A DNA stretch of 52,767 bases from a virus: positions 1-52,767 of IMG/VR virus record IMGVR_UViG_3300034346_000019; one strand, written 5' to 3'. Both the position numbers and the translations under genes were made by a program. Position 1 is the stretch's first letter. Each line of letters begins with the position of its first letter. Below are positions 1 to 52,767 of this stretch, piece after piece. The notes beneath the pieces were generated by a model. The model searched no databases. It saw only the letters and a list, made by a program, of their open reading frames with translations, and was not told the DNA's origin.

Positions 1-55
1 CCACGATAACTGCTACGCGTGGTAAAATGAAGTTAATAGGTAATTTTGGAGGAAC
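1..55. repeat. Terminal overlap copy 1, identical to 52713..52767; marks a circularly closed or permuted genome
   Basis: 55/55 nt identity read directly at both window ends. Confidence 0.95.
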
Positions 56-8225: not shown

Positions 8226-9554
8226 ATGGCTCAACAAATAATCAACAACGGAACAGTAGCGGGAGACGGAACAGGGGAAGTGCTTTTTTCGGCATTTGAA
8301 AAAGCTAATGATAATTTTACGGAATTATATTTAAGTAAGCGAGAAAATATAATTATATGCAACCAATCAAATAAAGACACAACATTAGGAGGTGTTATTG
8401 ATAGCGCGAAAGAATATTTTATTGACGGTGTTGTTGATATGGGTGCAACACAAATAACTGTTCCTATTGGTGGGATGACTATCAGAGGTTACTCTTTTGG
8501 TTTGAGTGGAATCATATCTAGTGAAGATAACTACACTATGTTTATATCTGAAAGTGCCCTGATAGGGTCTGGCAGCCTACTAGGTTTTGACTACTACATA
8601 GCCGTTTCAGGCGCATCTTCAAAAGTTTATGAATTATATGACGCTACAGGATTTAACGCCTTAGAGATCAATAGAGTTAATTATATTAATTGCTCATCTT
8701 TAGGCGATCTATATAACTATAGACAAGGGTTAGAGTTAGGTACAGGTAGATTTAACGGTAGTCCGTCATTAACTTTACATGGTCTTTGGTTAGGTGGTTA
8801 TCGGATTACCACCTCAATAGTTAGAGATATGAGTGATGTAGCAACAGAACCACTATTTAAGGAGGGTTTATTATTCCAAATGAATAGTAGATTTTTAACA
8901 GATATAAACGCTGACTTAGGCGACTTACAACCATTGTTAGATTTTCAACCTTCAAACTTTCCTAACGCTAGCACCTTACAATTAAAAGGGTGTGAGATTA
9001 CAAGGGGCGGGTCTTATGTGCCTAACGATGGAAATATAACACCTAATATAGATAGAGGTGATTTACCTTGTTATTGGAAAAGCAATAACGGAATACCTAA
9101 TACTTATCTAGGCGGCACAACAGAAGTTACAAGTGAGGAAACAACTGTAGTTAGTGCTGGCTCTACTTACTATGATTTACAAGGTGTCTTTACGGGTTCA
9201 GATTTGCAGCATTTTTCAGACAATGCGGATGGAGAATTAACTCATTTAGGAGTTAATCCTAGGGAATTTGAATTTACAGCATCATTGATATTAGAGAGTT
9301 CCGCAAATAACGACTTAACGGTAAGACTTGTTAAGTGGGATGATTCATCTAGTGCTTTTATAAACTTAGACTACACCGAGCAAACTAGGCAAGTAAACAA
9401 CTTACAAGGCGGAAGAGACGTGGCTAATTTCATGATAATTAATGGCGTTATTTTAGATGAAAATGATTTTTTGAAAATTCAAGTGAAAAATAATAGCGGT
9501 AACAATAATGTAGTAGCGGAAGTAAGTAGTTTTTTGAGAGTACAGGAAAGATAA
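8226..9554 (+). CDS. Putative tail fibre / tailspike (receptor-binding) protein
   Basis: N-terminus GTVAGDGTGEVLFSAFEKANDNFTELY matches the G-x-x-DGTGD-x-L-x-x-AF-x-K-x-N-x-NF-x-ELY motif common at phage fibre/spike N-termini. Confidence 0.6.
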   Translation: MAQQIINNGTVAGDGTGEVLFSAFEKANDNFTELYLSKRENIIICNQSNKDTTLGGVIDSAKEYFIDGVVDMGATQITVPIGGMTIRGYSFGLSGIISSEDNYTMFISESALIGSGSLLGFDYYIAVSGASSKVYELYDATGFNALEINRVNYINCSSLGDLYNYRQGLELGTGRFNGSPSLTLHGLWLGGYRITTSIVRDMSDVATEPLFKEGLLFQMNSRFLTDINADLGDLQPLLDFQPSNFPNASTLQLKGCEITRGGSYVPNDGNITPNIDRGDLPCYWKSNNGIPNTYLGGTTEVTSEETTVVSAGSTYYDLQGVFTGSDLQHFSDNADGELTHLGVNPREFEFTASLILESSANNDLTVRLVKWDDSSSAFINLDYTEQTRQVNNLQGGRDVANFMIINGVILDENDFLKIQVKNNSGNNNVVAEVSSFLRVQER

Positions 9555-9559
9555 ATAAT

Positions 9560-12208
9560 ATGGCAGAAAAAATAGTACTAGCGGAGCTTGATATTGATGT
9601 AGAAGGGTTAGTAAAGAATACATCAGAATTAAAAAAGCAATTAGACGCGCTGAAGAAGGCGCAAGCGGAACTAAAAAAGGCGGGTGATACATCAAGTAAA
9701 ACCTATATTAAAAATGCTGCGGATATAAAAACGCTATCACAAGCGTACAACACAAATGTAAAAGCATTAAGTGAAAATACAAAAGCAGTTGCAGAGTTAG
9801 CAGCGCGTGAGGATTTATTAAACACCGTTTTAAAGCAAGAAGTTACAAGCATCAAGGAGGCGAGGGCGCAAAACAAATTACTAAATAAATTGCGTAACGA
9901 AACAAACGCAACAACTGAAGAAGGTAGGCAGCAGATAGAACAATTAAACGCTGCGCTGAATGCTAATAATGATTTTATTCGAGAGAACGCGGACAATTAT
10001 CTACAACAAAAAATAAACATTGGTAACTACAAAGACTCTATAAAAGAAGCATTTGAAGAATTAAATATTTTCAATGGTGGCATAGTTGGATTTATAGCTA
10101 GGTCAAAAGAAGCTGGCGGAGTAGGTAAATTGTTTTCGTCTTCATTAAAGGAAATGACCAAAGGGATGATAGGGATGACTAAAGCGACGTTATCTTTTCT
10201 ATTAACTCCTATCGGTGTATTCTTAGCTGCGATAAGTGCAGCATTCTTACTAGTTAGAAACGCTATGAATCGAAGCGAAGAATCTACTAATAAAATAAAC
10301 AAAGCTTTTTCTGTTTTTAGCGGACTATTGAACCTAGTGTTAAGAGCGTTAAAACCTTTAGGCGATTTTTTAATAAACGGGATAGTAAAATCTTTAGAGT
10401 TTGTAGAAAAATCTGTTTATGCTGTTATAGAGTCTTTTGCGGGAATACTTAGTTTTCTAGGATTTGACGAAATGGCTGATAGCGTTCGCGGCTTTAACAA
10501 CGAAATGAAAGAAGCTACAAAATCAGCGAAGGCTTTAGCAGATGCGGAGGCGGAATTAAAAAAAGCCCAAAGGGAAACAGGGAAAGAAGTAAAGAAACTA
10601 CAAAAACAGCAAGAGGATTTAAGGCAAGTTAGGGACGATGTTACAAAAACTTATAAGGAGCGAAACAAAGCAAACGATGAACTAGCGTTAAAACTACAAG
10701 AGCAGCAAAGGCTTGAATTAAAAACGGCAGCTATAGCGGTAAAAGCTGCAAAACTATATATAAAAGAAAAAGGGAAGCAAAAAGATTCTTTAGATAGATT
10801 AGCAGCTGCGGAAGAAGAGTATAGCGATGTTTTAGAAAGAGTTAATGGTATTGAATCTGAACAGCTTACAAATCGAAATGCGCTTCAAAAAGAAGCTGCC
10901 GACAAAGCTAAAGCAATAAGAGAAAAAGCTTTTAATGATTCTATAAAAAAGCTAGACGACGAATTAAAATTATTTATCGCTCAACAAGGAACGCGTGCAA
11001 AAACTTTAGAAGAACAGTTAGTAGTTGCTAAGGGTATTGCTGAAAGAGAAACGGAAATATTAAAAACAAAGCTAAAAAACAATAAAAAGTTCCAAGCCGA
11101 ATATGATGCAGAAATATTAAAAATAAACAATGATCTGGCAGACAAAAAAGCGGACATAATTGTTGAAAATGCTGAGCTAGAGTTAAATAAGTATATCAAA
11201 ACTAATGAGTCTAAACTTGATAATGATAAGTTTTTTAGTGATGAATCGTTACGCATAGAGAAAGAGCGGCTTAATTCCATTGCGAAAAAGCAAGGAGAAT
11301 TTGCGAAAATCCAATTAGAACAGGGTAAAATAAACAAAACCGAGTATAACGCAGCTATTAATGAAATTAATGACGAGAATCAGAAAGGAATTGACGAAGC
11401 TAAAAGAAAAAGGGATAAGGATAAGAAAGAAGCTGAAACAATTGACGCGGAGAATCAAAGAATACTAGACGAGGAAAAATTTAATACCGAATTAGAACTA
11501 CAATTAAATAGGCTTCAAATAAAGAAGGAGCAAGAAATTGAAGTAGCGAAAGATAAAGGTGCTAGTGTAGAAAAAATAGAATCCGTATACAGGTTAAAAA
11601 AAGAACAATTAGAAGCGGCTGCATTAGAAGCTAAAAGAAACGCAAACGCGACAGCATTTGGACAAATTGCAGATTTACTAGGAGAGGAAACAGCACTAGG
11701 AAAAGCGGCTGCATTAGCTCAATCAGCAATAAATATTCAAGTAGGTATAACTAAAGCGTTAGCAAGTAAGGGGTTTGCTGGAATTGTAGAAGGTGCGGTA
11801 ATAGCAGCGAAGGGCGCGCAATCAGTCGCTAAGATAACAGGAATAGGGACTAAGTTTGAAAAAGGAGGATTTAGAGAAGTCGGTGGCAAACGGCATAGTC
11901 AAGGAGGCACAAAGTTTTTTGGCGAAGATGGTACTGGGTTGGAGGTTGAGAAAGGTGAGGGAATTGGAGTTTTTAGCCGAGATGAATTTACAGCATTAAG
12001 AAATCAGAATAATGCTTCTTTAGCTTCATTAGGGACTACTAATAATATTACACAGTTTGTTAGTCAAAGCAATTCACTTTCGGAAGGGCAAGTTTTTGCT
12101 GCGGTATCCAAAGCCTTTCAATCGATGCCTCAACAAGTCGTCGCGGTTGAAGATATTATATACCAATCACAGAGTTATGTTCAAGTTAAAACGGCTGCGG
12201 ATCTATGA
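9560..12208 (+). CDS. Putative tape measure protein (882 aa)
   Basis: Long Lys/Glu/Ala coiled-coil, central hydrophobic helices (LSFLLTPIGVFLAAISAAFLLV) and a Gly-rich C-terminal region. Position relative to the fibre genes is atypical. Confidence 0.6.
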   Translation: MAEKIVLAELDIDVEGLVKNTSELKKQLDALKKAQAELKKAGDTSSKTYIKNAADIKTLSQAYNTNVKALSENTKAVAELAAREDLLNTVLKQEVTSIKEARAQNKLLNKLRNETNATTEEGRQQIEQLNAALNANNDFIRENADNYLQQKINIGNYKDSIKEAFEELNIFNGGIVGFIARSKEAGGVGKLFSSSLKEMTKGMIGMTKATLSFLLTPIGVFLAAISAAFLLVRNAMNRSEESTNKINKAFSVFSGLLNLVLRALKPLGDFLINGIVKSLEFVEKSVYAVIESFAGILSFLGFDEMADSVRGFNNEMKEATKSAKALADAEAELKKAQRETGKEVKKLQKQQEDLRQVRDDVTKTYKERNKANDELALKLQEQQRLELKTAAIAVKAAKLYIKEKGKQKDSLDRLAAAEEEYSDVLERVNGIESEQLTNRNALQKEAADKAKAIREKAFNDSIKKLDDELKLFIAQQGTRAKTLEEQLVVAKGIAERETEILKTKLKNNKKFQAEYDAEILKINNDLADKKADIIVENAELELNKYIKTNESKLDNDKFFSDESLRIEKERLNSIAKKQGEFAKIQLEQGKINKTEYNAAINEINDENQKGIDEAKRKRDKDKKEAETIDAENQRILDEEKFNTELELQLNRLQIKKEQEIEVAKDKGASVEKIESVYRLKKEQLEAAALEAKRNANATAFGQIADLLGEETALGKAAALAQSAINIQVGITKALASKGFAGIVEGAVIAAKGAQSVAKITGIGTKFEKGGFREVGGKRHSQGGTKFFGEDGTGLEVEKGEGIGVFSRDEFTALRNQNNASLASLGTTNNITQFVSQSNSLSEGQVFAAVSKAFQSMPQQVVAVEDIIYQSQSYVQVKTAADL

Positions 12209-28317: not shown

Positions 28318-29469
28318 TTAGTAATCAGGTGTGTTTTCAATAATATCACGCTTATACACACCTGTTGTTTCTTTCAAATAAATATCCGTCATTTTAGCGG
28401 AGCTATGCCCATACTGATTCTGTATGGATTCTTTGCTTACCCCAGCAACGTATTTATCGTCACCGCCTTTTCGCTTGTATGAATACATAGTTACATCAAT
28501 TCCTAAGCCTTTTTTTACGATTCTTCTCCAGCGTTTTGTAGCGGTGTCTGTTTTAATTGGAGTTGGCGCGGGTATAAAATCAATAAACTTTCCAACGTTT
28601 CCGCGTCCGCGCTCTCTATAGCTTCCAAACAAATAAAAATCTTTTGGATATTTATGCAATTCCATTGATAATAAAATAGTTTTTAACCCTCTAGGAATAA
28701 CTACATTTCTTTTTTTAGTCCCCGATTTAGTGATCTTTGGTGGTAACCTTATTTCGTTGTTATCAAGATTAATCATTTCTAATTGAATAGAAAGTATTTC
28801 AGAAGGACGTATACCTGTATAGTACTCGGTAGCAATGAAGTTGTTGAAATACGGATAAAAACCGCTTAACTCGTTCTTAATTACCTCGTGATCCTCGTTA
28901 GTTGGCTTTTCGTGTAGTGTACTTTCTTCTTCTGGAAGCCTGTCAATTAGATAGACAGGATTGTGCTCTATAATATCCCATTTAAGAACTTCAACAATAA
29001 CCGCGCTTAAGTAATTAAGATTTTTGTTATACGATTTGTTTGACCATTTAAATTCTTCTTTTGCTTTTTCCGCTAGAGTTCGTATGTGAACACGTTTCAC
29101 TTCTTTAACCGAAAGATCATTCCAAGATAGAAGGTTTACAATTTTTCTAAAAGAAGAAACTGTGCCTTTATATCCTGAGAATGTTTTTTTTGCTAAGCGG
29201 TCTTTTTTCTTATCCAGCGCAAAATTCAAGGCTTCGACAAAAGTCATTTCTTTTTTTGCTTGGACTTTAATAAGTGGATTCCAGCCATTTTTTAGCTTGT
29301 CGTGCAATGCTTTTTTTAAGATGTTTGCGTGTATTTCGCGCTCTTTTAGGCATTCGATACGGTTGATTCCGTACTTATACACTTTCTTTTTTCCTTGATA
29401 GCGGGTGTAGATGTACCATCCTTCAGCTGCTTTACATAGCTTAGGCACTGTGAAAATTGATTTTTCCAT
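28318..29469 (-). CDS. int: Tyrosine recombinase / phage integrase (Bacteroidota type)
   Basis: 383 aa; N-terminal arm/SAM-like region, YTGIRPSEIL (catalytic Arg box), C-terminal GHSSAKMTDIYL (His...Tyr). Confidence 0.9.
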   Translation of the reverse strand: MEKSIFTVPKLCKAAEGWYIYTRYQGKKKVYKYGINRIECLKEREIHANILKKALHDKLKNGWNPLIKVQAKKEMTFVEALNFALDKKKDRLAKKTFSGYKGTVSSFRKIVNLLSWNDLSVKEVKRVHIRTLAEKAKEEFKWSNKSYNKNLNYLSAVIVEVLKWDIIEHNPVYLIDRLPEEESTLHEKPTNEDHEVIKNELSGFYPYFNNFIATEYYTGIRPSEILSIQLEMINLDNNEIRLPPKITKSGTKKRNVVIPRGLKTILLSMELHKYPKDFYLFGSYRERGRGNVGKFIDFIPAPTPIKTDTATKRWRRIVKKGLGIDVTMYSYKRKGGDDKYVAGVSKESIQNQYGHSSAKMTDIYLKETTGVYKRDIIENTPDY

Positions 29470-46513: not shown

Positions 46514-46804
46514 ATGGCACAACACATAAAAATTATGCAAAATTTATCAAAAGAATTTGATCACATAGGAAAAGTAAGAGTATCCTATGGATTTGGAAAT
46601 CAATTAATCAAAATTGAAAAAAGAGTAAAACATCCTAAAACATTCCTAAAACCAGAACGTGTGGAATGGAAAACTGTATATGCTGGTTTTGCTGATGTTT
46701 TAAGAGAATCCTTGTCAATATATGATGATCTAAAAAAAGAAGCTGAACCGACGGAGAAGACACTAAGAGAACAGCAAGAGCGAGAATATCGATCAATTCA
46801 TTAA
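46514..46804 (+). CDS. Hypothetical protein (96 aa)
   Basis: Co-oriented ORF. Confidence 0.55.
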   Translation: MAQHIKIMQNLSKEFDHIGKVRVSYGFGNQLIKIEKRVKHPKTFLKPERVEWKTVYAGFADVLRESLSIYDDLKKEAEPTEKTLREQQEREYRSIH

Positions 46805-46815
46805 TACTGTAGGTA

Positions 46816-46968
46816 ATGAAGCTTGAAGAAAGAACTGAAATGATAAGAAAGATTCGTGCTGAATTCTTAGATGCGGAAGAAATACTTCCTTCTGGAAGTT
46901 TCACAATAATGCATGACTTGAGAATTAAGACACAAAAAATCATCATTGAATCAATAAAGATACTATGA
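46816..46968 (+). CDS. Hypothetical small protein (50 aa)
   Basis: ATG 46816 to TGA 46968. Confidence 0.4.
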   Translation: MKLEERTEMIRKIRAEFLDAEEILPSGSFTIMHDLRIKTQKIIIESIKIL

Positions 46969-47120
46969 AACGATCTGAAGAGCTAAAAGTGAAGCGTAGA
47001 AAGTTCATTAACAATTACGTTGAACAGAATCAAGAAAAACAAATGAAAGTCATCGTTGCTGAATTAGTAGATCGTCTTTTCATTTCAGAAAAATCAATAT
47101 ACAACATATTAAAAGAGTAG
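46965..47120 (+). CDS. Small HTH-like DNA-binding protein (51 aa)
   Basis: ATGA overlap; VAELVDRLFISEKSIYNILKE resembles an excisionase/HTH_17-type recognition helix. Confidence 0.45.
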   Translation: MKRSEELKVKRRKFINNYVEQNQEKQMKVIVAELVDRLFISEKSIYNILKE

Positions 47121-47284
47121 TAAAAAAGAAGCTCCCGTGTGAACAGGAGCTAAATAAAAGCCTTGGTGTTGAAACCAAATCTTTCTAAGTGGAATTACAA
47201 AGATACAATTCTTCATCAAAGCTTTCAATCGAAAGCGGAAGCCGAAAAGCTAATAGAGTAGGCAAATTTTAAAACAATTATATA

Positions 47285-47512
47285 ATGAAAAAACGAAATT
47301 TAAAATCTTTGAAGTTAAACAAGAGATCAATTTCCAATTTATCAAAAATTAAAGGTGGTGAAGGTGGTTTTTTTTCAAATTTATTTGAATGCTTTGACCC
47401 ATCGGATATGACAGAACCATCTATTTGCACAGTATATGATTACGGAGAAGGTTTTTATCCAATTCCATATATGTGCGAACAAACGTGTCAAACCGCTTGT
47501 TACGGAAAGTAA
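47285..47512 (+). CDS. Double-glycine-leader, Cys-rich secreted peptide precursor (bacteriocin/RiPP-precursor-like), 75 aa
   Basis: Leader MKKRNLKSLKLNKRSISNLSKIKGG; 50-aa core with 5 Cys ending YMCEQTCQTACYGK; followed by a hairpin. Confidence 0.65.
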   Translation: MKKRNLKSLKLNKRSISNLSKIKGGEGGFFSNLFECFDPSDMTEPSICTVYDYGEGFYPIPYMCEQTCQTACYGK

Positions 47513-47627
47513 TTAAATAATGAAGGCGGTAATTGATACTTGCCGTCTTCAAAAACATACTAATTGCAATTAAAACAACTTAAAAACCTGTAGGTTAATC
47601 GGTCGCCTACTATTCCAATGACCGAAC

Positions 47628-47667
47628 AAAACAATATATAATGAAAAAACAAAATTTAAAAAGCTAA
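47628..47667 (+). pseudogene. Truncated second copy of the leader-peptide gene 5' end (MKKQNLKS*)
   Basis: AAAACAATATATAATGAAAAAACAAAATTTAAAA parallels 47271..47305; stop after 8 codons. Confidence 0.55.
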
Positions 47668-47675
47668 CAAAAGAT
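47662..47675 (+). repeat. AGCTAACAAAAGAT copy 2 (left arm of a 14-bp inverted repeat)
   Basis: Pairs with 47709..47722. Confidence 0.9.
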
Positions 47676-47708
47676 AGTATAATAACTTAAAAATCATTAT
47701 ATTGTAAC

Positions 47709-47722
47709 ATCTTTTGTTAGCT
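47709..47722 (-). repeat. AGCTAACAAAAGAT copy 3 (inverted)
   Basis: ATCTTTTGTTAGCT on the plus strand. Confidence 0.9.
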
Positions 47723-47798
47723 GATTACAACCCTTTGTAAACTCAGCTAATTTGTAGTATCTAATACTTTCCGATTAGCTTTAAATCTAAAGCTAGAA

Positions 47799-48413
47799 AT
47801 GAATCAAATCAACAAAGAAGACAAAGAATTATTATACAAAGCATTATGTGGGTATTTACTGTATAAACTTAAAGTATCAATAATAAACAATGAATTAGGC
47901 GAAATAAAGAAGATAGACACCTTAACAGGTTGTCAATGTTTTGACGAGGATGAAATTTGGATTTACACACCTAAAAACGAATGGCTTATTGAAGAAGTTA
48001 AACCAATACTTAGGCCGTTATCCGATTTAACAAAAGAGATAACACACAATGGAAAAGTAATTACACCTATCAGAGAATTGTTTAAAATGATAGACAAGTC
48101 TGACTATGTGGATTGGTATCATTTTTTAGATGTCGAACTAGACGAATGCTTAAAAGCAGCTAATACACAGATCGACGACGAATGGAATTTCTGTTTGAGA
48201 TTAGACCATCCAAAAAACGGTAACGAAAACTCTTTAACATTAAGCGTTACAAGTCACAATATTTGCTTGTTTGATAATCTTAATTGTGAAGAAATGCGAA
48301 TAATGAATGAAAGGGACTTATTCGAGTATTTAAAATCACTTCATTTCGATCTAGACGATCTAATAGAAGAAAATCTAGCAATAGACATTAACACATTAAA
48401 TACAAATGACTGA
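47799..48413 (+). CDS. Hypothetical protein (204 aa); paralogue of the 23580..23978 product
   Basis: Shared motifs listed at 23580..23978. Confidence 0.6.
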   Translation: MNQINKEDKELLYKALCGYLLYKLKVSIINNELGEIKKIDTLTGCQCFDEDEIWIYTPKNEWLIEEVKPILRPLSDLTKEITHNGKVITPIRELFKMIDKSDYVDWYHFLDVELDECLKAANTQIDDEWNFCLRLDHPKNGNENSLTLSVTSHNICLFDNLNCEEMRIMNERDLFEYLKSLHFDLDDLIEENLAIDINTLNTND

Positions 48414-52298: not shown

Positions 52299-52767
52299 TG
52301 AATATAGTAATAGAAAAACCAAATTTAGCGGACTATCAAAAAGACTTTCTTTATAACGATAGTCGTTTCACAGTCACCGAAGCAAGTACTAAGGTGGGTA
52401 AAACGTTTTCGCATATCTGGTGGATTTATGAACAAGCTCATGCGGATTGGAACAAAGAAGGGTATAATCATTGGTGGGTTGCTCCTGTGTATTCTCAAGC
52501 AAAGATTGCGTTTAAGAGGCTTAAAAATAAAGTAGGTCGTACGGGATTGTATAAGATTAATGAAAGTAACCTAACAATAACAACCCCTATAGGCACAGTT
52601 ATTCATTTTAAGTCAGCAGATAAACCCGATAATCTTTTTGGAGAAGATGTATATTCTATTGTATTCGATGAAGCACCTCGTGCAAAAGTAGATGCTTTTT
52701 ATGCGTTACGCTCCACGATAACTGCTACGCGTGGTAAAATGAAGTTAATAGGTAATTTTGGAGGAAC
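52298..52767 (+). CDS. terL: Terminase large subunit, N-terminal ATPase part (runs off the window end and continues at 1..860)
   Basis: Walker A EASTKVGKT, Walker B SIVFDEA; no stop before the window end. Confidence 0.85.
   Translation, partial: MNIVIEKPNLADYQKDFLYNDSRFTVTEASTKVGKTFSHIWWIYEQAHADWNKEGYNHWWVAPVYSQAKIAFKRLKNKVGRTGLYKINESNLTITTPIGTVIHFKSADKPDNLFGEDVYSIVFDEAPRAKVDAFYALRSTITATRGKMKLIGNFGG
52713..52767. repeat. Terminal overlap copy 2 (identical to 1..55)
   Basis: Read directly. Confidence 0.95.

Follow-up and report, generated by a model that had tools for sequence, protein, structure and literature searches.

In marine picocyanobacteria, many prochlorosin precursors (ProcA) with leaders of the NHLP type are encoded at scattered positions and handled by one enzyme (ProcM). 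In temperate phages, small secreted peptides are represented by the arbitrium system (AimP/AimR/AimX), the peptides of which are 6 aa long. Phage-borne bacteriocin clusters are also known, and each of the examples found comes with enzymes, a transporter, and an immunity gene of its own. Prophages of the sublancin type, such as SPbeta, carry the whole cluster, in which genes for modification enzymes, a transporter, and immunity accompany the precursor (Dragos et al., bioRxiv 10.1101/2020.10.01.322628). The terms "Bacteroidetes" and "Flavobacteria" have no occurrences in the text of that survey of prophage bacteriocins. Class I lanthipeptide precursors (LanAs; pinensin-type) of Bacteroidota have a leader with the motif LxLxKx5L followed by GG, and a C39 protease is often encoded in the cluster (NF038153; Walker et al. 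2020, PMC7268733). The RiPP precursors covered by TIGR04149 are modified by radical-SAM (rSAM) enzymes and have leaders of the general Lys-rich class ending in GG.

The present study describes a phage that carries a precursor gene only. If the leader of such a lone precursor is specific to the host, this would show that viruses are able to tap RiPP pathways of their hosts in trans, and one gene of 228 bp would offer a simple handle for testing the role of the very large, uncharacterised peptide family of the marine bacterium Kordia. The window, i.e. the whole stretch of DNA analysed (52,767 nt), is a complete circular phage genome of about 52.7 kb with an integrase. Its genes include those for terminase, portal, tape measure, prohead protease, integrase, and an HTH_3 Cro/CI-type protein. 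The initial annotation had regarded the DNA as that of a phage, which the circular genome, structural genes, integrase, and Cro/CI-type HTH protein confirm; the integrase indicates that the phage is temperate. Pfam matches in the gene set comprised 20 unrelated families besides the integrase, a Clp protease, and a weak match to T4 gp9/10. The main features are as follows.

28318..29469, minus strand: tyrosine integrase (PF00589, E = 3.3e-11)
47285..47512, plus strand: 75-aa precursor-type peptide gene (leader, core, and stop codon; based on the open reading frame and leader homology)
47285..47359, plus strand: leader of 25 aa, MKKRNLKSLKLNKRSISNLSKIKGG, ending in G24-G25
47360..47509, plus strand: core of 50 aa with 5 Cys, 7 Ser/Thr, 10 aromatic residues, and a net charge of -7
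47510..47512, plus strand: stop codon of the peptide gene
47232..47264, plus strand: DUF805b RNA motif (Rfam RF02914, clan CL00115, cis-regulatory candidate), ending 20 nt before the ATG

The 75-aa ORF, GG leader, and 50-aa core with 5 Cys described in the initial annotation were all present. The peptide gene belongs to the replication/early block and shares its strand; it is outside the lysogeny module, 17 kb from the integrase. No intergenic regions in the neighbourhood are longer than the two that flank it. Searches of the peptide and its neighbours with Pfam, PHROG, and PADLOC gave nothing useful, the downstream genes matching two PHROGs of unknown function.

The leader carries the LxLxKx5L motif as L9-K-L11-N-K13-RSISN-L19, and these positions are invariant in family alignment A2. 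The terminal G24-G25 was also found in 80 of 89 Kordia relatives. The consensus for GG cleavage by C39 peptidases has hydrophobic residues at -4, -7, -12, and -15; I22 (-4), L19 (-7), and L11 (-15) of the phage leader fit, but R14 (-12) does not. An HMM constructed from 8 bacterial leaders identified the phage peptide among 8131 ORFs with 43 bits (E = 1.7e-11). By similarity, the leader alignment, this HMM, and the described motif (PMC7268733) place the leader in the Lys-rich double-glycine class of Bacteroidota, as had been proposed.

The more specific proposal of a TIGR04149-like leader was not borne out because TIGR04149 (GG_sam_targ_CFB; cut-off, 25 bits) gave no match at E up to 10. The Pfam model Lant_leader_dom did not match the peptide. 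The only curated model to touch it, and hence the nearest, was NF038153 (lant_leader_L1a, class I lanthipeptide leader), with a score of 9.6 bits (E = 1) below the cut-off of 22 bits. Among ten relatives tested, NF038153 was the best or second-best model, and its cut-off was passed only by P0005 (24.1 bits); some Kordia relatives gave weak TIGR04149 matches (7-16 bits). The phage peptide resembles class I lanthipeptide precursors in L9xL11xK13x5L19, G24G25, and a core with Cys and Ser/Thr. However, it scores below the cut-off, is phage-borne, and has LanB and LanC neither on the phage nor near the paralogues examined. With the rSAM-modified precursors, it shares the general Lys-rich class ending in GG, whereas it lacks a match to their model and the phage lacks a radical-SAM/SPASM gene.

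We searched 185,579 species genomes with the pattern LNK[RK][SL]IS[NHS]L[SQ]. Kordia accounted for 33 of the 34 confirmed genome loci, and on this sequence pattern the leader family appears to be found almost only in Kordia. The 91 paralogues in these loci occur in tandem arrays as well as singly and at scattered positions, and their Cys-rich, acidic cores vary. The phage leader and that of a metagenomic relative (L003) agree at all of 19 residues, and Kordia and Leptobacterium peptides have near-identical leaders. At the DNA level, 14 of 57 nt differ from L003 and all of these differences are synonymous, while the protein leader is identical at 19 of 19 residues. Therefore, the leader is under purifying selection, the lack of which had been named beforehand as a possible refutation. 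The nearest Kordia locus was no better than 47/57 nt.

GC content and tetranucleotide usage of the window resemble those of Kordia (r = 0.65 with single 20-kb Kordia loci). The corresponding values were r = 0.12-0.16 for two other Flavobacteriaceae, and the median for viral loci was 0.37. Together with the leader family, this composition suggests Kordia as the probable host genus. Genera including Kordia have been remarked upon as rich in lanthipeptides (PMC11118758).

In other phages, the occurrence of the peptide is sporadic because it was found in none of 80 DnaB-related viral loci or 50,697 GenBank phages. Neither the region (megablast) nor the peptide (tblastn) had a match among GenBank phages. 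An intact family member is present on a second IMG/VR contig (L135), the viral status of which is backed only by a single PAPS-reductase PHROG in the 10 kb analysed. On that contig, the peptide gene stands alone; its leader is the same, and its core is rich in Cys, very acidic, and aromatic. The closest DnaB in IMG/VR was 52% identical, none of the 80 DnaB-related loci had a GG-leader ORF, and the 204-aa gene downstream of the peptide had no relative in IMG/VR. Therefore, neither synteny conservation nor an insertion site is demonstrable.

The Cys and Ser/Thr contents and the charge of the core fall inside the range spanned by its Kordia relatives. Its strong acidity is unlike classical cationic bacteriocins, yet typical of the Kordia family. 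Ser/Thr and Cys for thioether rings are available (7 and 5 per 50 residues), which is necessary, not sufficient. An exhaustive search with the core only, covering 1.84 billion representatives, yielded no true homologue. As the core is an orphan, selection on it is not assessable and the evidence for purifying selection pertains to the leader only. The single match in this search (P0006) was spurious, being a tandem-repeat translation with a score inflated by 9 copies of GEGF.P...CE.T.

The DUF805b element upstream of the gene scored 49.5 bits (gathering threshold, 35.6; E = 3.6e-11 over the whole window) and covers model positions 1-35 of 35, with the loop GGAAGCCGAAAA and the tail AGAGUAGGCA. 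The family was named for DUF805 genes, whereas both here and in the loci examined from viruses and metagenomes, the element is followed by many other genes. In 47 viral contigs and at least 120 metagenome loci, a few to approximately 40 nt separate it from the downstream start codons of unrelated genes. These included at least 7 other GG-leader Cys-rich peptides and, in other viral contigs, early-type genes such as those for SSB-like proteins. DUF805b is a generic 5' element of Bacteroidota and their phages that precedes many unrelated genes. Its location at the usual distance from the start codon supports ATG 47285 as the start used. No DUF805b was found in 617 kb of host family loci. We found no functional description of DUF805b in the searchable literature. 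The present locus adds to the evidence that it is a general 5' element in Bacteroidota and phages, and its placement at a fixed, short distance before the start codons of many small exported proteins makes its function easier to test. A structured leader RNA had been claimed upstream of the peptide. The 164-nt leader RNA is indeed moderately structured (z = -2.64), but this structure is largely the generic DUF805b, which the initial annotation did not name. The idea that DUF805b marks transcript 5' ends was not borne out by the Bacteroidota -7 box (TAnnTTTG), which only 3 of 45 DUF805b instances had upstream; a sigma-70 promoter scan is uninformative for Bacteroidota.

The earlier statement that the phage has no maturase, exporter, or immunity gene was upheld by profile annotation of the complete gene set, in which no maturase, RiPP enzyme, exporter, or recognised immunity gene was found. 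The Radical_SAM, SPASM, Peptidase_C39, ABC_tran, and ABC_membrane families were absent from this gene set, as were LanB and LanC from the complete genome. The bacterial copies examined likewise had no LanB, LanC, C39-ABC, or rSAM gene within 10 kb; therefore, orphan status is normal for this family. The ten best maturase or exporter candidates beside bacterial paralogues were rejected as housekeeping or unrelated proteins. At the genus level, Kordia is reported to be rich in RiPPs and to have LanC as well as clusters of the lanthipeptide and rSAM types (PMC11118758, PMC7477175). Since the leader is of the Kordia type and the phage has no such machinery, the peptide probably depends on host enzymes.

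On balance, we consider it somewhat probable that the gene encodes an orphan GG-leader precursor that derives from, or co-evolved with, the Kordia peptide family and is matured in trans by the host, yielding a phage-supplied variant. The cassette resembles slightly more than one unit of a host-type tandem array, with a full gene, the intergenic region after it, and the opening 21 nt of a second gene. It is located behind the phage-typical DUF805b 5' element and ends at a palindromic hairpin. If the gene is expressed, the leader would serve as the recognition part for leader-dependent enzymes and C39-peptidase ABC exporters. Host machinery may then modify the core in trans by introducing thioether or other Cys-based cross-links, cleave after G25, and export the peptide. 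An infected or lysogenic cell would thereby gain a new, phage-supplied peptide variant, which may be biologically active.

The Kordia family resembles the prochlorosins in its scattered and tandem precursors, conserved leader, and hypervariable cores. By analogy, this likeness may extend to processing in trans by machinery encoded elsewhere, as a matter of logic only and not of homology; the Kordia-type peptides differ from prochlorosins in leader type, phylum, and enzyme class. Similar to prophages with bacteriocin clusters, a temperate phage here carries a gene for a secreted-type ribosomal peptide that may benefit the lysogen; in contrast to those clusters, only the precursor is present. 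More tentatively, we speculate that "auxiliary precursor genes" are a feature of temperate Kordia phages; these would be orphan peptides, driven from the phage's DUF805b, with a copy of the host's RiPP leader, so that host enzymes and exporters either build a product designed by the phage or are jammed, although we regard this generalization as doubtful. If true, it would be a new viral route to reprogram or sabotage a peptide natural-product pathway of the host without any biosynthetic gene.

The start of the gene and the region downstream of it contain the following features.

47272..47305, plus strand: direct repeat copy 1, comprising the 13 nt before the peptide gene and its first 21 nt
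47628..47661, plus strand: direct repeat copy 2, 34 nt, 88% identical to copy 1 at a spacing of 356 nt
47641..47667, plus strand: truncated ORF in copy 2 (ATG 47641, TAA 47665-47667), reading MKKQNLKS and then stop
47657..47727, no strand assigned: inverted repeat with 28-nt arms (47657-47684 and 47700-47727, 82% complementary), starting where the similarity of copy 2 ends
47521..47551, plus strand: 12-bp hairpin beginning 9 nt past the stop codon, without a U-run after it

The truncated second copy is not due to chance: a 27-nt sub-pattern of the repeat occurs twice with no more than 1 mismatch, and 0 were expected in 100 shuffles. The spacing of 356 nt is close to the period of Kordia tandem arrays (median, 359.5 nt). 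Similarity past the 34-nt repeat was no better than chance, with 314 of 500 shuffles scoring at least as high as the real alignment. The proposal of a lost second precursor gene therefore holds in part: a duplicate at host-array spacing, its stop after 8 codons, and the perfect 14-nt core of the inverted repeat (47662-47675 and 47709-47722) are real, but duplication is demonstrable for the gene start only. An out-of-frame N-K-R remnant in the truncated copy was rejected because its alignment was no better than shuffles. Folding of the 3' intergenic region was far above that of shuffled sequences (z = -5.56, 0/200).

The truncated adjacent copy indicates that the locus does decay. This is consistent with the gene being an inert passenger, namely, a host-array fragment acquired by illegitimate recombination and now being lost, with an ORF intact through recent capture and no role in the phage. 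The lack of the peptide in all related viral loci examined, the core without homologues, and the position of the gene between the two longest intergenic regions are in line with this explanation. Nevertheless, we consider it unlikely. The 14 differences among 57 positions from the closest protein-identical relative argue against a recent DNA transfer, and no Kordia locus was closer than 47/57 nt. Moreover, a DUF805b of the phage type, absent from the host family loci, is present at the normal distance from the ATG, and the second viral contig has an intact family member.

Host-dependent maturation may also be the target rather than the means. As a leader-mimic decoy made during infection, the peptide would occupy or jam the leader-dependent maturation and export machinery of the host, blunting, for example, a RiPP-based response, without an active product. 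A location in the early block, on the early strand and outside the lysogeny module, would suit such a role, as would the occurrence of DUF805b before early-type (SSB-like) genes in other viral contigs and the combination of a constrained leader with a unique core. In other bacteria, lanthipeptides reportedly have an anti-phage function, according to a preprint. However, we know of no anti-phage role for Kordia peptides, and the core retains the Cys and Ser/Thr typical of the family, which a pure decoy does not need. We regard this purely inferential explanation as quite improbable.

Upstream of the peptide gene, two further features were noted.

46965..47120, plus strand: conserved small ORF of 51 aa ("mini-HTH"), with homologues of equal length at 67-75% identity
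47130..47151, no strand assigned: 9-bp hairpin rich in G+C, immediately following the 51-aa ORF and folding in plus-strand RNA

The 51-aa ORF had been presented as an HTH gene accompanying the peptide. It is a real, conserved ORF, but the partnership did not hold: in 3 of 3 relatives, neither the peptide gene nor DUF805b follows it. In one relative (L170), it is divergent from a Peptidase_S24 repressor gene, i.e. in a Cro-like position, and in another (L171), it precedes tail-collar and holin genes. Judging from these relatives, the 51-aa ORF is an independent gene that is not specifically tied to the peptide. Pfam and NCBIfam gave no match to it, and its best PDB sequence match was GerE (E = 0.14). 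An AF2 model (pLDDT 85) predicted a helix at residues 2-38, a turn, and a helix at 42-50, which are two helices and not a three-helix bundle; an HTH fold is weakly indicated.

The initial annotation had raised an arbitrium-like logic, in which a processed, secreted peptide is sensed by a phage receptor and biases lysis-lysogeny. The phage is temperate, the peptide has a secretion-type leader, and the small upstream ORF may bind DNA; like arbitrium, the system would involve a small secreted peptide from a temperate phage. However, the idea gained no support because no phage ORF has a receptor-type domain, and we consider it highly improbable. A receptor-type gene such as AimR was neither adjacent nor elsewhere in the gene set, all three relatives have the 51-aa ORF but not the peptide, and a distance of 17 kb separates the locus from the lysogeny module. 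In addition, the peptide lacks a Sec-type signal and the architecture of a short mature peptide, and its Cys-rich core of 50 aa contrasts with the arbitrium peptides of 6 aa.

That the ORF arose by chance in AT-rich DNA between genes, which would explain the lack of Pfam, PHROG, and PADLOC matches, has next to no probability. The leader homology (19-residue identity and the 43-bit HMM score) effectively refutes it, and the exclusively synonymous divergence, DUF805b at start-codon distance, and a frame open for 75 codons at 32% GC also argue against it.

The hairpin at 47130..47151 is terminator-like on the minus strand only, the T-run being on that side. Homologues of the 51-aa gene have a hairpin and T-run at the corresponding position.

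Direct repeats of 55 bp at 1..55 and 52713..52767, together with a large terminase ORF spanning the contig junction, indicate a complete circular assembly of about 52.7 kb (GC 32%). The window is a temperate tailed phage encoding terminase, portal, tape-measure, Clp-type prohead protease, replication initiator, DnaB, a tyrosine integrase and a Cro/CI-type HTH protein. The features discussed here are as follows.

28318..29469, minus strand: tyrosine integrase
47232..47264: DUF805b RNA (Rfam RF02914), full-length match, 49.5 bits against a gathering score of 35.6
47272-47305 and 47628-47661: direct repeat, 34 nt, 88% identical, spacing 356 nt
47657-47684 and 47700-47727: arms of an inverted repeat with a perfect 14-nt core

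All sequence features described in the initial annotation were found. The product of ORF 47285..47512 begins with MKKRNLKSLKLNKRSISNLSKIKGG and continues with a core of 50 aa that has 5 Cys. The 75-aa product was a singleton among 5.8 billion clustered proteins, and its weak matches covered the leader only. The first 19 residues were identical in one metagenomic peptide, and further leader matches were found in Leptobacterium and Kordia, one of which is annotated as a class I lanthipeptide. An HMM of eight bacterial leaders gave the phage peptide 43 bits (E = 1.7e-11); since the training set was found via similarity to the query, this score expresses fit to the family and not independent discovery. 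The leader DNA differed from that of the protein-identical relative at 14 of 57 positions, all synonymous, which rules out a very recent DNA transfer and is a clear sign, at the codon level, of purifying selection on the leader.

The leader fits the LxLxKx5L...GG motif of Bacteroidetes class I LanAs, whose clusters often contain a C39 protease (Walker et al., PMC7268733). The class I lanthipeptide leader model NF038153 scored 9.6 bits for the phage peptide vs a cutoff of 22, and most Kordia relatives were likewise under this cutoff. The TIGR04149-like assignment proposed earlier was not borne out, as a search of the 75-aa product against TIGR04149 and Pfam models returned no match. Since the curated cutoffs were missed, we treat the peptide as one that would work like this leader class, not as a certified member.

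When the 50-aa core was searched exhaustively with phmmer against 1.84 billion representatives, only the peptide itself and the protein-database entry P0006 (E = 1e-11) came up. P0006 was rejected as a homologue: it is a translated tandem repeat of 550 aa (9 copies of a ~57-aa unit), and its score was driven purely by repetition, which calls for caution in searches with short queries. A unique core behind a conserved leader is the signature of such precursor families. Since the core is unique, selection is measurable on the leader and not on the core.

We scanned one genome per species (185,579 species) with the pattern LNK[RK][SL]IS[NHS]L[SQ], and 33 of the 34 confirmed loci belonged to Kordia. 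These loci held 91 leader-HMM hits, in tandem arrays and as single genes, with variable cores. The family medians were a 27-aa leader and a 41-aa core with 5 Cys, 8 Ser/Thr and a net charge of -3, and the core was acidic in 73 of 89 members. With 50 aa, 5 Cys, 7 Ser/Thr and a charge of -7, the core of the phage peptide is within the family range; its aromatic share is unusually high (20% vs a family mean of 6%). GC content (32.1% in the window vs 33.7% in Kordia) and tetranucleotide usage point to Kordia as the probable host: single Kordia loci of 20 kb correlated with the window at a median r of 0.65, whereas two other Flavobacteriaceae reached 0.12-0.16 and viral loci a median of 0.37.

The duplicated segment comprises 13 nt upstream and the first 21 nt of the peptide gene, and the second copy reads MKKQNLKS and then stops. 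One 27-nt sub-pattern is present in two copies in the window at no more than one mismatch, whereas 100 shuffles gave an expectation of 0. The similarity ends where the inverted repeat starts. The stretch 47510..47800 (291 nt), which takes in the 3' intergenic region of 286 nt, has a much more stable predicted fold than shuffled versions (z = -5.56). An out-of-frame continuation of the remnant was rejected: in a local alignment past the repeat, 314 of 500 shuffles scored no worse than the real sequence, and duplication can be demonstrated for the gene start only. The decayed tandem copy reported earlier thus holds in outline, and its spacing of 356 nt matches that of Kordia arrays, in which neighbouring family genes had a median start-to-start distance of 359.5 nt (n = 36). 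Most simply read, the phage carries one full unit of what appears to be a host-type tandem array, together with the opening 21 nt of the unit after it; the array was cut either at capture or afterwards, and the cut coincides with the palindrome.

The Pfam scan of all phage ORFs of at least 80 aa identified 20 families in batch, plus the integrase, the Clp protease and a weak match to T4 gp9/10. In agreement with the initial annotation, it revealed no lanthipeptide dehydratase or cyclase, radical-SAM/SPASM protein, C39 peptidase or ABC transporter. Similarly, no maturase or exporter was found within 10 kb of the bacterial paralogues examined, and orphan precursors are therefore normal for the Kordia-type family. 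Kordia is described in the literature as rich in RiPPs, with LanC close to precursors and with clusters of the lanthipeptide and rSAM types (PMC11118758; PMC7477175). The best-supported reading, which we consider somewhat probable on the sequence evidence, is that the gene encodes an orphan precursor reliant on the host for leader-dependent modification, cleavage and export. Host enzymes would recognise the leader and modify the core, with lanthionine, another thioether or disulfides as candidate chemistry; the host would then cleave after G25 and export the product. Among the alternatives, an inert captured fragment is unlikely and a decoy that mimics the leader is rather improbable. An arbitrium-like signal is very improbable, and a chance ORF can practically be set aside given the leader homology. 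Phage-encoded bacteriocin clusters that include their own machinery are known (bioRxiv 10.1101/2020.10.01.322628). In contrast, this phage has the precursor gene alone, with a host-specific leader, which would represent a new version of that theme.

No GG-leader peptide of this type was found in 80 DnaB-related viral loci or 50,697 GenBank phage records. L135, an IMG/VR contig of 47.8 kb whose viral status was weakly checked, encodes an 84-aa peptide with a leader as in the window and a Cys-rich, very acidic, aromatic core. Its gene has neighbours in the opposite orientation on both sides and no companion on its own strand, and the similarity of the two cores is marginal (E = 0.09). L056 (IMGVR_UViG_3300043219_000028) encodes a DnaB 51% identical to that of the window, and no other viral locus correlates better with the window in tetranucleotide usage (r = 0.68). 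L056 may be a phage that shares the window's host genus; the 13 kb of it that were covered contain no GG-leader ORF.

The DUF805b RNA ends 20 nt before ATG 47285, which supports use of this start codon. Its core pattern was present in 47 IMG/VR contigs, with a covarying stem, usually 4-40 nt ahead of the start codon of an unrelated gene; these genes encode membrane proteins, small acidic proteins and SSB-like proteins that end in DDDLPF. Searching metagenomes for the motif with ATGAAAAAA after it returned at least 120 loci, mostly before signal-peptide or lipoprotein genes; at least seven copies precede other GG-leader Cys-rich peptides. No copy of DUF805b occurred in the 617 kb of Kordia family loci, and in the window it lies just beyond the edge of the duplicated segment. 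Its absence from Kordia loci, its position before unrelated genes and its location outside the duplication indicate a generic Bacteroidota/phage 5' element; by this distribution, it is an element placed ahead of the captured gene and not a peptide-specific regulator. The structured leader of the initial annotation exists and includes the RF02914 match, but the Rfam family had been missed and the element is generic. The peptide gene is 17 kb from the integrase, in the replication/early block and behind an element that precedes early-type genes elsewhere, so that "lysogen-delivered" is not established.

No description of DUF805b function was found in the searchable literature. A Bacteroidota -7 box was upstream in only 3 of 45 viral instances and many copies directly follow the preceding ORF, which suggests a role that is intercistronic and linked to translation. 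DUF805b is far more widespread than its name implies (47232..47264 in the window; loci L008-L054 and L173-L292). It keeps a short fixed distance to the start codon, in most cases some 20 nt. The genes that follow are very diverse and include many for GG-leader peptides, SSB-like proteins or small exported proteins. In a group of viral contigs of 83-106 kb, which come from sample 3300045988 with the one exception of L053 (35 kb), a conserved additional hairpin (CTAACAtTCTCGTTGTTAG) stands after DUF805b, and the ORFs beyond it are all very short (L012-L016, L018, L022, L026, L029, L032, L034, L040, L046-L048, L050, L053 and L054). In these contigs, it may be part of a non-coding RNA or a longer leader.

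The 51-aa ORF (46965..47120, plus strand), originally described as an upstream mini-HTH gene, is a real conserved gene, judging from homologues of equal length and 67-75% identity. In three of three relatives, neither a peptide gene nor DUF805b lay by the homologue, which was followed by a hairpin and T-run terminator; by this synteny, the ORF is a neighbour and not a partner of the peptide gene. Its conserved C-terminal pattern and AF2 model (two helices, pLDDT 85) make an HTH fold plausible but unproven; a GerE match had E = 0.14. At L170 4916..6156, on a bacterial chromosome, a homologue is divergent from a 315-aa Peptidase_S24 (LexA/CI-like) gene, in a Cro-like position. This pair is minimal CI/Cro-like, with no other phage genes nearby.

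The hairpin at 47130..47151 after the 51-aa ORF has a T-run on the minus strand only. ORFs above ~50 aa nearby are on the plus strand, except a 103-aa minus-strand ORF (46635..46946) that overlaps plus-strand ORFs. The homologous positions in relatives have plus-strand terminators; addition of the peptide cassette may have removed the T-run here.

LytTR regulators are common controllers of bacteriocin and peptide-signal loci. An 862-aa Reg_prop / Y_Y_Y / LytTR regulator lies directly upstream of a three-gene precursor array in a Kordia genome (L145 7257..9842), and by this analogy it could govern the peptide family. In the metagenomic locus L003 (3122..7571), which supplied the identical 19 residues, six GG-leader peptide genes with variable cores directly precede a 592-aa Peptidase_S41 gene, possibly a processing protease. 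Another locus, L001, has a Flavo-1 RNA (RF01705; 42.9 bits, just over the gathering score of 42) at 9540..9707 on the minus strand. It lies opposite in strand to two Kordia 'class I lanthipeptide' precursor genes and ~300 nt upstream of the pair.
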